Assembly (NCBI RefSeq): GCF_964213995.1
Contig: NC_135808.1
Span: forward strand, 35,650,001-35,714,000
Source: Mustelus asterias
Lineage: Eukaryota
Length of the DNA: 64,000 nt
Direction of reading: 5' to 3'
In this document: in pieces, positions 38,694 through 52,915 of the stretch
How positions within the stretch are numbered: the stretch's first letter is position 1
Layout: every line of letters starts with the position of its first letter
Program-made: the position numbers and the translations under genes
Notes under the pieces: model-generated
The model's input: the letters and a program-made list of their open reading frames with translations, nothing else
The model's database searches: none
What the model was told of the DNA's origin: nothing

Positions 38694-38766
38694 CAGCCCA
38701 GATGGGACTTCAACCCATACTCCCTGGCTTAGGAGGCCAGTGCCTTATCCATTAGGCCACTGGGGC
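38694..38766 (-). tRNA. tRNA-Arg(CCT), probably a pseudogene
   Basis: GCCCCAGTGGCCTAATGGATAAGGCACTGGCCTCCTAAGCCAGGGAGTATGGGTTGAAGTCCCATCTGGGCTG closely matches vertebrate tRNA-Arg-CCT; T-loop TTCGA changed to TTGAA, one acceptor-stem mismatch, no oligo-T terminator. Confidence 0.8.
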
Positions 38767-47043: not shown

Positions 47044-48144
47044 TCAATTGGATTCCCCACTGTTTGCTGAATGAATACGATGCTGGTCCAACATGTGAGA
47101 TGATTGTTCAAAGTCCTTAGTATGCATCTCCCCTGTATGAATGCGCCGATGACTCATCAGGCCTGATATCCGCGTAAAGTCCTTATTACACACCTCACAC
47201 TTGAACGGCTTCTCCCCAGTGTGAAGGCGTTGGTGTTCACGGAGGTTTGATGACTGGGAGAATGATTTCTTACACACTTCACAGGTGAATGGCTTCTCCC
47301 CAGTGTGAGTGCGTTGGTGAACACGAAAGTGAGATGAGCGAGAGAATGATTTGTTGCAGACTTCACACTTGAATGGTTTCTCCCCGGTGTGAATACGTCG
47401 GTGTTGTGCGAGCGCTGATGAACAAGTGAAGTCTCGATCACACAACTCACACCTGAAGGGATTTCCCCCTGTGTGAACGCTCTGGTGTATCAGGAACCTC
47501 GTAGATGTTGGGAAAGCTTTATCACAAAATTCACATTTGAAGGGTTTCTCCCCTGTGTGGATTGTCTGATGGACCTGGAGGTTCGATAACTGTGTAAAAG
47601 CTTTCGCGCACACATCACAACGGAACAGCTTCTCCCCTGTGTGAGTGCGTTGGTGCACACGAAAGTGCGATGAGCGAGAGAATGATTTATCACACAACTT
47701 GCAGGTGAATGGTTTCTCCCCAGTGTGAGTGCGTCGGTGTTGCATGAGCGCTGATGACTGTGTGAAGGCTCGGTCACACAATTCACACCTGAAAGGTTTC
47801 TCCCCTGTGTGAACACTCTGGTGCATCAGGAATCCTGTCGATGTTGGGAAAGCTTTATCACAAAACTCACACTTGAAGGGTTTCTCCCCTGTGTGGATTG
47901 TCTGATGGACCTGGAGGTTCAATAACTGTCTGAAAGCTTTCTCACACACGTCACAACGAAACAGCTTCTCCCCTGTGTGAATGCGTTTGTGTCTGTGAAG
48001 ATGCGATGACTGCGAGAATGATTTATCACACACCGTACACGTAAATGGTTTCTCTCCAGTGTGAGTGCGTTGGTGGATTCGAAAGTGGGATGAGCGCGAG
48101 AATGATTTGTCACACAACTCACACTTCAATAGTTTCTCTTCCAT
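47044..48144 (-). CDS. Tandem C2H2 zinc-finger protein D (12 fingers + 1 degenerate, 366 aa)
   Basis: Intact ORF from aaaATGG (MEEKLL); TGEKPF/TGEKLF linkers. Confidence 0.9.
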   Translation of the reverse strand: MEEKLLKCELCDKSFSRSSHFRIHQRTHTGEKPFTCTVCDKSFSQSSHLHRHKRIHTGEKLFRCDVCEKAFRQLLNLQVHQTIHTGEKPFKCEFCDKAFPTSTGFLMHQSVHTGEKPFRCELCDRAFTQSSALMQHRRTHTGEKPFTCKLCDKSFSRSSHFRVHQRTHTGEKLFRCDVCAKAFTQLSNLQVHQTIHTGEKPFKCEFCDKAFPTSTRFLIHQSVHTGGNPFRCELCDRDFTCSSALAQHRRIHTGEKPFKCEVCNKSFSRSSHFRVHQRTHTGEKPFTCEVCKKSFSQSSNLREHQRLHTGEKPFKCEVCNKDFTRISGLMSHRRIHTGEMHTKDFEQSSHMLDQHRIHSANSGESN

Positions 48145-49277
48145 TTTGCTGGCTTTGTGTTACAGATGATACAGCTGATCCTGTTGAGCACACCTCACAC
48201 ATTAACAGCCTCTCACCTGTAGGAATGAGTCACTGGTTCATGAGTCTCGATGAATGATTGAAGCTCTCATCACACTTGGAGTTCACTCACGCTTCTTCCC
48301 AGCCTCACCCTGACTGATCACCCACAGCCGAAACTTTGAAAAGGTTGGTTCTGATTGGTTGCTTCCACACCACTGATCAGTTTCAGATTTGATGATATGT
48401 CAAAGCTCCCCTGGCCCGACCGATTTCCTGATGATGGTTTCACTGCCCAACTTCAGCGTTGAGCAATGCTGTTTAGGAACTGGATGTCTCCCCACAGTTG
48501 TGCAGTTGTTTCTTGGGTGATGGTCAGGATCTATCTGCGGTGTCTATTCTCTCTGTATTCTCTGGTGCTATCCTTCTGTAAAACAGGAAAAGGAAACATG
48601 ATTTCATCCAACTCCCTCTTCTCCTTTGCTGAAGAGGCTGACTCCTCAGTTAAAGACTGTTCCACAGTGAGTGCCAGTCTGCTATTCCCCCATGTGGGGA
48701 TCAGATACAAGTCCTTTCTTTTTCTTCACTTGATTGTCACACACCCTCTGTTTCTAGCAGGGACCCTGGATAGTGACCAGGAGCAGACGACGTGGTTACT
48801 TTCCATCCTCCATCCAGAACCCCATCTGCCAGGCGCTGTGATGTCAATGGAAAAGACAGTCAGGAGGAGTATAAAATGGGCTAACATTTCACTATGAATC
48901 CACGTCACAGAATGTTTCAACCTGAACACTTCCCAGTCTACTCCCTCACCATTCCTGGGAATGTCCCATCCCACTGGTAGATGGGGAAGTTCTCAATATT
49001 GACTCAATGGAGTCTCATGGCTTCATGTCAAACACATTCAAGGAAAACTACCACTTCCCTCCCAGCTGATGAGTGAATACTTCACCCTGTTAATCATCAC
49101 TGGGGAAGTAGACAAAGGTCAGATCCCAAAACTGGGTATCCATGCAGTGAGCCATCAGCAACAGCAGGATTGTATTCACCACAATCTCAGTCCGAACGGA
49201 GCACAGCCCTCATTCCATGATTGTCAGCAAACCAGTAGAGAGACATGTCAGGAGCAGCACTGGGTATACTTTAGAGT

Positions 49278-49530
49278 AGTCATGATGTGGAGATGCCGGC
49301 GTTGGACTGGGGTAAACACAGTAAGAAGTTTAACAACACCAGGTTAAAGTCCAACAGGTTTATTTGGTAGCAAAAGCCACACAAGCTTTCGGAGCTGCAA
49401 GCCCCTTCTTCAGGTGAAGAAGCCCCTTCTTCACCTGAAGAAGGGGCTTGCAGCTCCGAAAGCTTGTGTGGCTTTTGCTACCAAATAAACCTGTTGGACT
49501 TTAACCTGGTGTTGTTAAACTTCTTACTGT
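49278..49530. mobile_element. 253-bp Penelope-derived palindromic mini-element with a hammerhead motif on each strand
   Basis: 107-bp perfect inverted arms (49316-49422 / 49426-49532); 14-bp TSD GTATACTTTAGAGT; motifs at 49380-49416(-) and 49432-49468(+). Confidence 0.9.
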
Positions 49531-49662
49531 GTATACTTTAGAGTCCAGGTTTGAACCTCGTGAAGATTATTATTGAATCTGCATCTACCACCCTATCACA
49601 CAGTGCATTCCAAATCCTAAACACTTGTCACTGTCTAAAAAGTTTTTTAAAGTTTATTTTAA

Positions 49663-49946
49663 AAGTAAAGTTTATTCATTAGTCACAAGTAAGGCTTACA
49701 TTAACACTGCAATGAAGTTACTGTGAAATCCCCCTAGTCACCACACGCCGACGCCTGTTCGGGTCAATGTACCTAACCAGCATGTATTTCAGACTGTGGG
49801 AGGAAACCGGAGCACTTGGAGGAAACCCACGGAAACACAGGGAGAACATGCAAACTCCACACAGACTGTGACCCAAGCTGGGAATCGAACCCAGGTCCCT
49901 GACACTGTGAAGCAGCAGTGCTAACCACTATGCTACTGTGCCACCC
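49663..49946 (-). mobile_element. HE1-like V-SINE
   Basis: Reverse-complement head and V core. Confidence 0.88.
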
Positions 49947-51273
49947 TCAAATCACCTCTGATTTGTGTTGCCAATCATCTTTTATGTATAAACTCTAGTT
50001 ATGAACTATCTGCCAATGGGAACAGTATCTATTTACTCTTGTACTTCATGATTTTAAGTATTTCTAACAAATCACCTCCTCGCCTTCTCTGCTCTCAGGG
50101 AAACAATTCCAGCTTCTCTAGTCTATCCACGTAACCGTAATCCTTCAATCCTGGACCATTCTTGTAAAACTCTTGTACTCTCTCAAAAATTCAAAGAAAG
50201 GGCAGTGAAACATCTTGGAGAAATTTGAAAAGACAGAAAGCAGCAATAAATGACATTAATGGTCCACGGGATAATAACCTGATCCCAACACACACATAGA
50301 ATTCAACAATAGGAAATCAGTAAGAATCCTCAGACACTCTGCCCTCCCAGATAATTACACCTCACCTTCTCATATTCGTTAATGACCCAGCAACAAAACT
50401 CATCCTGTAAATCAGAAGGGAAATGCTTCCAATAAACACACTCAATATCCAACACACAGCTCCAATCAAACAGCTCAGCACAAAGTACCAGGTAAACAGG
50501 CCTCTCAGCTGGATCTTCTCACACAGCATAAGAGGCATTTCCACACCTGATTCCCCACAGGATAGTCAGACTGCCTGAACATTAGTGTGGATATTATGCA
50601 ATGTAATTATTATAAATTCTGCTCCTTCACTCACCATCTCCTCACTTGGTTTTCAGTCCCTACAGGAAGTGAAGCAGCTGTGAAAGAGGAAGAGGAGGGA
50701 ATGGGCAGAGTGGGTGGGCTCTCTGATTGACGTCTCTCACAGCCAATCCAAATATTTCTGGAGTAACGTGAGTTTCCTGAAGCTTGGGGAACTGACCGGT
50801 GAAACGGAGGCGACTTTGAGCAGCAGATCAGGTGGGGATTTAAACTCGTCATTGTCCCATCTGAATAAAATCTCACTTATTCCAGCTGTTGTCTCAGTTC
50901 CCCTGGTAAATGTTTGACAGAGATTTCCAGTGTGGGGATAGCATTCTTCATCTCGGAGGCTTTCAAACTGACAACATCAGTGTGGGATGTGTAGCCTGGG
51001 ATGTGTTTGACAGCAGATCAGAAGAGGAAGGCCCACAGCATCCAAGGCAGTGATGATGTGCAGTGGTGGGATCAGCACATGGACAGGAGAGAGTGACATG
51101 GGAGGGTGGAACTCAAAAGAGAGCGAGGAATCTGAGCCAGTGTTTGGGGAGTGATTCCTCCTGCAACTCTTCTGTGTGCAACTCTGTTCAGTCAGTGGGA
51201 CTGCTGCAACAAAATAGAAAAACGCTGGAAAGTCTCAGTCAGTCTGACAGCATCTGTGGAGAGAGTTTTAAAA

Positions 51274-51846
51274 TTTTTTTAAATTCCAATTCAATCAAAT
51301 CAAGTCCAATTCAGACTCTCAACAAGTTGCGACATTCCCGATCCAAGCTGACAAGACAGGGCTCTCACCTCCTGTCTTGGGCTTGATCTACATGATCCAA
51401 GCTGATTAGAATAGGAATAGCTCCTCCTCCAAGGCTTGATCTAATTTGCATCTTAGCCAAAAGGCCGAAATGCCACTTTTAAAAATTGCTTCAAATGAAG
51501 CCAAAATGTAACCGAATGACTTCACCAAGCACAGCATGTCGACAGCCTTTTGGCTAAGATCAAGTGTAGTATCGACATGCTGTGCTTGGTTGAAGTCATT
51601 CGGTTACATCTTAGCTTCATTTGAAGCAATTTTTAAAAGCGGCATCTCGGCCTTTTGGCTAAGATGCAAATGAGATCAAGCCTTGGAGGAGGTGCAATGC
51701 CTACTCCAATCAGCTTGGATCGTGTAGATCAGGCCCACGACAGGAGGTGAGAGCCCTGTCTTGTCAGCTTGGATCGGGAATATCTCAACTTGTTGAGACT
51801 CTGAATTGGACTTGATTTGATTGAATTGGAATAAAAACAAAAAAAA
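51274..51846. repeat. Fold-back of two ~270-bp A-tailed retro-element ends around a U2 snRNA fragment
   Basis: Arms ~51274-51542 and 51572-51846 are imperfect reverse complements with outward A/T-rich tails. Confidence 0.85.
51545..51573 (+). ncRNA. U2 snRNA fragment (nt 12-40), not a full gene
   Basis: GCCTTTTGGCTAAGATCAAGTGTAGTATC is identical to the conserved vertebrate U2 5' region and includes the branch-point recognition sequence GTAGTA. Confidence 0.9.
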
Positions 51847-51920
51847 GAGTAGAGTAGAGTGGACTTTTTCCTCTTCAGTTGTATACAGAGAATCTCCAGC
51901 AATGGTGAATCTTCCCACCG

Positions 51921-52390
51921 GAAGAGTTTTAACAACACCAGGTTAAAGTCCAACAGGTTTATTTGGTAGCAAATGCCATTAGCTTTTGGAGCGCTGCTCC
52001 TTCGTCAGATGGAGTGGATATCTGCTCTCAAACAGGGCACAGAGACACAAAATCAAGTTACAGAATACTGGTTAGAATGCGAATCTCGACAACCAACCAG
52101 GTCTTAAAGATACAATGTGAGTGGAAGAGGAGAACTATGTGTTCCACTCACATTGTCTGTATCTTTAAGACTTGGTTGGCTGTAGAGATTCACATCCTAA
52201 TCAGTATTCTGTAACTTGATTTTGTGTCTCTGTGCCCTGTTTGAGAGCAGATTTCCACTCCATCTGACGAAGGAGCAGCGCTCCGAAAGCTAATGGCATT
52301 TGCTACCAAATAAACCTGTTGGACTTTAACCTGGTGTTGTTAAAACTCTTACTGTGTTTACCCCAGTCCAACGCCGGCATCTCCACATCA
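51921..52390. mobile_element. Penelope-derived fold-back element with hammerhead motifs (52260-52296 plus, intact; 51976-52012 minus, core mutated)
   Basis: ~200-bp inverted arms; 14-bp TSD GAATCTTCCCACCG (51907-51920 / 52391-52404). Confidence 0.9.
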
Positions 52391-52399
52391 GAATCTTCC

Positions 52400-52915
52400 C
52401 ACCGCCATCGCTCTGGTTCCTACCAAGGGTCAATCTCTGCTTTTCAATTCGATTCAGCCGCTCGGGGCTCGCGCTTCCTCACATTCCAACTCCCGAACGC
52501 TGGGAGACAACCGCCGCTGCGCGCGGCAGAACTACAACTCCCATCAGGCACCGCGGGCTGGCTCTCTCTCTCTCTCCCTGATTCCATAGTGCCGCTCCTC
52601 ACTGCGCAAGCCCGGGAAATAAAAGGCTTTTGCGACCAAAGAACCCTGTTGGACTTTAACCTGGTGTTGTTGAATTTCTTACTGTGTTTACCCCAGTCCA
52701 ACACCGGCATCTCTACATCAAGCCCGGGACCACAATGCAGCATGGGTGATGTTGTTCCGACCGGGTGAGAGTCTGCCTGGAAAGCGGCTGCGCAGAACTG
52801 GGCGGAGCGCAGGATCTCATGTGACTGGCCCCCAGGAATGATTGGCATGTCCCCTGTGGGCGGGACTATTCTCGCTGCACAAGTGGCTGTGAGAGCCGTC
52901 AATCAGAGCGCTGAG
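52400..52915. promoter_or_regulatory. CpG island / probable bidirectional promoter of ZNF-D and ZNF-E
   Basis: Most CpG-dense non-TE stretch in the window; ZNF143(Staf)/THAP11-type motif ACTACAACTCCCATCAGGCACCGCG (52531-52555), a degenerate inverted copy (52731-52755), GC boxes, CCAAT (ATTGG) and E-box CATGTG. Confidence 0.7.

Follow-up and report, generated by a model that had tools for sequence, protein, structure and literature searches.

A fold-back in Mustelus asterias built from two copies of a U2-headed retroposon that shares its target with Keno

The window analysed here, a 64,000-nucleotide stretch of Mustelus asterias DNA (contig NC_135808.1, positions 35,650,001 to 35,714,000), contains a long fold-back at 51274-51846, the loop of which displays the branch-point recognition sequence of U2 small nuclear RNA (snRNA). 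This raises the question of what the two arms are, how they came to lie head-to-head, and whether the structure serves the zinc-finger gene beside which it stands.

The arms and the family to which they belong

The two arms (Table 1) are 92.6% alike over 270 alignment columns, both start at nucleotide (nt) 39 of the family described below, and each ends in an A-rich tail, which confirms the preliminary description of two ~270-bp A-tailed copies placed head-to-head with the same start. The predicted folding energy of the whole fold-back is -469 kcal/mol, whereas shuffled sequences average -153 (z -48). Between the arms, positions 51545-51573 correspond to U2 nt 12-40 and are identical (29/29) to the same genome's own U2 genes; an Rfam scan of the window returned the U2 match at the fold-back below threshold (34.3 bits; cut-off 46). 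Matches of the palindromes to Rfam microRNA families were judged to be chance.

The arm returned 2,199 first-look candidates in the genome of 3.68 Gb, and the exact tail motif occurs at least 2,304 times genome-wide (reversed control, 0); the exact young-type head-body junction was counted 559 times. Counting copies that begin with the U2 head at one junction had been proposed as a check, and 30/30 top matches have the head at an identical junction; among 30 copies sampled by position, 27 begin within U2 nt 1-25 and 7 are of the young type. Target-site duplications were detected in 51/125 copies, whereas three shuffled pairings yielded 1 each. The consensus is 299 nt long, non-coding and poly(A)-tailed, and several subfamilies, each with a fixed loop, can be distinguished. 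Tandem copies are common, with a family tail lying at most 80 nt upstream in 21/133 copies. The family is amplified as a unit with subfamilies, rather than being a sum of chimeric retrocopies, and both arms are copies of this dispersed ~300-nt U2-headed, poly(A)-tailed retroposon of the SINEU kind. The top matches, the position-picked copies and the tail motifs together bear out the earlier proposal of a short U2-headed non-autonomous element. As the U2 head occurs at one junction across the family, the loop of the fold-back is the ordinary head of the right copy; the assignment of the spacer to U2 nt 12-40 thus holds, but the "spacer" is the right copy's own family-wide head. Likewise, the internal U2 echo described for each arm was found in both, but is a property of the family and is predicted to form a closed U2 stem I. 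In four copies (L209, L212, L217 and L219), an extra U2 fragment stands ahead of a remnant, a few bases long, of the U2 upstream flank, an arrangement like the 5' additions described for SINEU-2.

Table 1. Positions of the fold-back parts, of nearby modules and of copies with clustered changes (window positions unless a locus is named).
Feature	Position	Strand	Remark
Zinc-finger ORF	47047..48159	-	
Leader module	50620..50770		promoter-like
Fragment housing the left copy	51207..51265	+	presumably a Penelope-like repeat; same spot carries three more copies (L048, L049, L161)
Left copy, inferred host	51274..51542	-	family nt 39-299 and A tail, without U2 head; 95.8% to young consensus
Left copy's internal U2 echo	51450..51468	-	U2 nt 9-27
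Left copy's anti-head	51510..51537	-	family nt 44-72; + strand reading resembles U2 target
Recurrent cut of 13 other dimers, projected here	51536/51537		within left copy's anti-head
Host sequence beyond predicted cut, 6 nt	51537..51542	+	slot of target-site duplication in other dimers (inferred by analogy)
Right copy's U2 head, the fold-back loop	51545..51571	+	U2 nt 12-38, branch-point recognition sequence included
Right copy, inferred insert	51572..51846	+	body nt 39-299 and A tail; head included, 97.2% to young consensus
Right copy's anti-head	51577..51605	+	predicted U2-head pairing in monomer RNA; folds computed on other copies
Right copy's internal U2 echo	51642..51665	+	23/24 match to U2 nt 4-27; predicted closed stem I
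Short repetitive filler, 15 nt	51847..51861	+	expected place of host's displaced head; ~10 bp of paralogs also missing
Promoter-like module	52385..52600		
CpG island	near 52500..52800		
Copies with A-to-G clusters	L152:1228-1543; L138:1602-1904; L106:1219-1529; L117:937-1263		sense-strand changes

In the available part of Kojima 2015 (PMC4494074), SINEU-1 is a crocodilian family with Mariner-N4_AMi as its target, and the transcription of such promoter-less snRNA-headed SINEs is left open; there and in the available parts of two later papers, SINEU is given for crocodilians only. Like SINEU elements, the family here has a U1/U2-derived head, a length below 500 nt, no coding capacity, poly(A), target-site duplications and a target preference shared with a Tx1 element. 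The likeness to SINEU-1 as described there is one of design and extends to the short U2-derived head, the internal snRNA piece, the poly(A), the lack of a detectable LINE-derived tail, tandem insertion, and a target common to a Tx1 family. In contrast to that description of SINEU-1, the family here targets U2 nt 38/39 itself, has copies at +1 of U2 genes, carries an anti-head after the head, and nests in antisense within its own copies.

A target shared with Keno

Keno is presented in the available parts of two papers (PMC4640811, PMC4494074) as a U2-specific element of the Tx1 clade with an APE endonuclease. A Tx1 element encoding a CCHC ORF1, an APE endonuclease and a reverse transcriptase lies in the U2 array of this genome and is followed by U2 nt 39 onward. 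In the array stretch L043 (G000:C24:44815000-44824500), the Keno domains comprise Pfam PF03372, which exceeds the cut-off, PF00078, which stays below it on a broken ORF, and PF13966, the assignment to Keno being tree-free and based on these domains and the 3' flank. The unit of L043 is 8,035 bp long, consists of a U2 gene plus a broken Keno, and is repeated ~16 times in tandem, as judged by the spacing of U2 matches. ORF2 is broken in the Keno copies of three array stretches, where an intact ORF2 was not found. Utopia was rejected as the driver, as the U2-inserted element found carries an APE domain, whereas a restriction-like endonuclease would be expected.

U2 nt 39 onward also lies directly 3' of eight family copies, two of them within the Keno-bearing array region, and in L166 one family copy has inserted into the head of another at nt 38/39. 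The family inserts at U2 nt 38/39, a target shared with Keno, and the tie to Keno in the preliminary description is borne out by the Tx1 element of the U2 array and the eight copies, all followed by the same U2 sequence. We infer that the Keno (Tx1) enzyme mobilises the family. Besides the 3' flank, the two have in common that the local Keno also begins with its own U2 piece and a short complementary stretch (predicted hairpin in L043, z -2.4). The arms differ from Keno in being non-coding and not of Keno sequence, and most family copies lie outside U2 genes. The suggestion of a Keno tail did not hold, as only the U2 pieces align between the arm and the L043 Keno, the one Keno family compared. 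The last ~15 nt of older family tails are loosely like the Keno tail, and a Tx1 tail lies immediately upstream in 5/133 family copies; yet it is scarcely credible that the arm is nothing but the 3' end of a Keno element truncated at random, given this lack of alignment and the 5' structure fixed in 27/30 copies.

A search for family copies with the final bases of U2 upstream DNA in front of them returned 12 matches, all of older types. Four of them carry 235-400 nt of upstream flank, one in the main array (L218) and three at a variant U2 (L208, L211 and L215), while L214 carries 32 nt and the seven others 5-12 nt. The variant U2 at these three loci, a putative gene, is 84-90% like the main gene. 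Masters of the family are inferred to be transcribed from U2 promoters; since copies with upstream flank stand at U2 +1 and dispersed copies retain the last bases of that flank, such a borrowed promoter is directly testable. No young-subfamily copy stands at U2 +1 among the 12 matches, so that the source of this subfamily was not found. The variant U2, with an upstream flank of its own, forms short arrays on several contigs (L185, L189, L191, L208, L211 and L215), often targeted by both the family and Keno.

Masking, self-targeting and the origin of the dimer

In predicted folds of monomer RNA, that of the consensus included, head nt 11-39 form a duplex with body nt 44-72 in which the branch-recognition sequence is buried; the fold of an older-copy monomer has a z of -6.4. 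Head and anti-head align in one gap-free register with 16 Watson-Crick, 9 G-U, 0 A-C and 4 other pairs, and across 36 distinct sequences 95.3% of cells are paired, with a variable loop length. As a neutral inverted duplication would yield G-U and A-C pairs equally often, the ratio of 9 to 0 (p 0.004) is evidence for masking. A covariation test found two-sided change in 1/25 pairs and a score not above the column shuffle; few two-sided changes are expected because the U2 side is fixed, and covariation alone gives masking no support. The first 30 nt of the body, the anti-head, are predicted to hide the U2 branch-recognition sequence in monomer RNA.

Traces of double-stranded RNA may also be found in the substitutions. 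Among 106 copies, sense-strand A-to-G changes outnumber T-to-C (176 vs 93, p 8e-12), and a slight excess persists when the seven richest copies are removed (91 vs 81, p 0.03). Strand-specific clusters of 13-24 A-to-G changes each occur in 4/106 copies (Table 1), two of which have many sites in common and may not be independent. The clustered changes are confined to the 5' 205 nt, and some fall in stretches unpaired in the monomer fold. By 5' neighbour base, the changed A follows U in 16/28, A in 28/55, G in 13/43 and C in 9/65; this fits the ADAR preference in part only, with depletion after G not significant (p 0.59). Overall, the A-to-G excess points to editing of double-stranded RNA ahead of reverse transcription.

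The preliminary description proposed testing whether inverted dimers are recurrent. When exact young head-to-head junctions were sought, with at most 30 nt between the copies, this locus alone was returned. A wider junction search (gap 45-75, both subfamily spellings), which covers insertions near the loop and cannot return this locus because of a 1-nt deletion here, found 15 other head-to-head loci (control, 0), establishing the recurrence. In 13 of the 15, the host's head lies past the poly(A) of the insert, with 0-15 nt duplicated, and in all 13 the insert is antisense and the cut falls at the same base, in the host's 5' hairpin loop. The other two are L196, a more complex nest in which the host head is also kept, and L205, a 5' inversion of a single copy; single-RNA 5' inversions are known in the family from L132 and L205.

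At the recurrent cut, the host's antisense strand reads AAGTGCAGCA followed by TC and matches U2 at 8 of the 10 bases before, and at 2 after, the Keno site, making the anti-head a target mimic on the opposite strand. The masking stretch therefore likely creates a self-target. All 13 clear hosts belong to older subfamilies, and neither junction search returned a second young-subfamily host. In the left copy, which is young, the mimic is weaker (6/10 before and 1/2 after the cut); the rarity of young hosts among dimers may also reflect less time to be hit. A joint reading of these data is put forward tentatively, as possible rather than probable: the RNA mask over the working end of U2 would be a second Keno target in DNA, leading to head-to-head homing and ADAR-edited duplexes, and the youngest subfamily would have escaped through Watson-Crick to G-U changes that kept the RNA mask while eroding the DNA mimic. 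What is new here is the likely self-targeting by way of the masking strand. The literature listings and abstract openings covered contained no report of self-targeting and no shark U2-headed SINE. Self-targeting of this kind would explain a recurrent source of long inverted repeats, and the naturally occurring variants of the Keno target that it supplies would help to map endonuclease specificity.

For the dimer in the window, nested insertion, in which the right copy entered the left copy at its 5' hairpin loop and the host head was then deleted, is probably the correct explanation. RNA from masters at U2 promoters would be moved by the Keno (Tx1) enzyme; since head and anti-head are reverse complements, the DNA strand opposite the anti-head resembles the Keno target, and cleavage there would make a new copy land backwards and head-to-head. 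The right copy would thus have inserted in antisense into the left copy, whose displaced head would later have been deleted. The inner end of the left copy lies 6 nt beyond the recurrent cut, consistent with a duplication, and the arms differ in their tails and in subfamily marks (160T/163A, found in 16-17/64 young copies, and 166T, in 11/64), indicating that they derive from two sources. A host head is absent after the right poly(A), whereas 14/15 other loci show one (13 clear, 1 complex), so that nesting must assume one extra deletion; on the right flank, ~10 bp present in paralogous modules are gone. Also weighing against this account are the older subfamilies of all 13 clear hosts, the weaker mimic of the left copy, the scarcity of two-sided changes in the stem, the absence of young copies among the U2 +1 matches and the broken ORF2 of the Keno copies.

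A single event, in which two family RNAs (or one tandem-dimer RNA) were primed at both ends of one staggered break and the cDNAs joined head-to-head, would need no such deletion and ranks next, although it is rather unlikely. It would leave no host head, and would account for a 4-5 bp repeat that flanks the whole dimer and for flanks readable as one Penelope-like fragment; single-RNA 5' inversions and frequent tandem copies in the family are also in its favour. Yet a like arrangement is seen in 0/15 other dimers, only chance would place a truncation at nt 39 within 6 nt of the recurrent cut, and L166 and L117, which also start at nt 38-44, are nested cases. Duplication of one copy by fold-back DNA synthesis, with the arms then diverging or being converted by other copies, is more improbable still: head and anti-head do form a quasi-palindrome and a rare variant at nt 68 is present in both arms, but the arms differ in common subfamily marks and tails, and the flanks are without duplication. 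The nt-68 variant occurs at 14 sites genome-wide, 6 of them within the zinc-finger cluster of C8, and two more rare variants, found in 0/64 young copies, are shared with the copy in L144. This suggests conversion; under nested insertion, nt 68 requires either conversion or coincidence. The copy in L144 (G000:C8:36860716 region) lies in a paralogous zinc-finger promoter and has rare variants in common with both arms. A single blunt insertion is a less likely origin in the light of the dimer survey.

L1-type twin priming and ADAR-edited inverted SINE pairs serve as comparison systems. The fold-back resembles these in head-to-head geometry and long predicted duplex, and its family in the A-to-G clusters of some copies, but each arm has its own poly(A) and a different source, and 13/15 other dimers are site-specific nested insertions. 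Inversion of a single RNA by twin priming, which leaves one poly(A) and non-overlapping parts, was rejected, as the fold-back has two tails and fully overlapping arms.

The zinc-finger gene and neighbouring features

The fold-back lies between the zinc-finger ORF and the CpG island, and was described earlier as standing in a first intron downstream of a CpG-island start. This placement is unconfirmed. The leader module, with motifs that we take to be CCAAT-, CRE- and ETS-like, is 94-99% conserved in 11/15 paralogous stretches, while a CpG module is found within 6 kb of the leader in only 1/15, so that the minus-strand zinc-finger gene may start downstream of the fold-back. Arguing against such a start are an acceptor-like site at ~50679 inside the leader module and the same head-to-head layout kept in three paralogs (L089, L090 and L103). 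RNA contigs from four runs of other or unidentified organisms were compared with 49900-51270; in one run, contig ends lie loosely at the 50635 donor. They contain no canonical splice joint in this region and give almost no cover at 51096-51187, and favour neither position of the start. Both promoter-like modules in Table 1 are copied across the C8 zinc-finger cluster, with 114 first-look candidates for the one at 52385-52600.

The preliminary description also raised the possibility of a U2 small nuclear ribonucleoprotein (snRNP) decoy or splicing modulator, for which no support was obtained. In a transcript of the dimer, if one is made, a sequence predicted to be hidden in monomer RNA would lie exposed. 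The predicted fold leaves ~15 nt of U2-complementary sequence unpaired, and the CpG island upstream contains a donor-like site. However, every family copy carries the anti-U2 string on its antisense strand, the insert is young (3-4% from consensus) and occurs at this site in 0/14 paralogous CpG promoter modules, fold-backs arise through a repeated accident of insertion, the gene may start downstream, and no paper on such a decoy is among the literature listed, as far as the available parts of these sources go. It is therefore highly improbable that the fold-back is kept as a decoy tuning the splicing of the zinc-finger gene. The dimer is better seen as a probable by-product; the locus is an atypical example of the dimer pattern, with no support for a regulator role and of modest value alone.

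Two more fold-backs, at 51916-52356 (91% alike) and 49312-49536 (98% alike), consist of a repeat different from the U2-headed family, which we take to be Penelope-like with a hammerhead-like core. The former has a 13-bp duplication on its flanks, and the paralogous modules lack it. Finally, a tRNA-like sequence at 38694-38766 on the minus strand scores 57 bits, over the Rfam cut-off.
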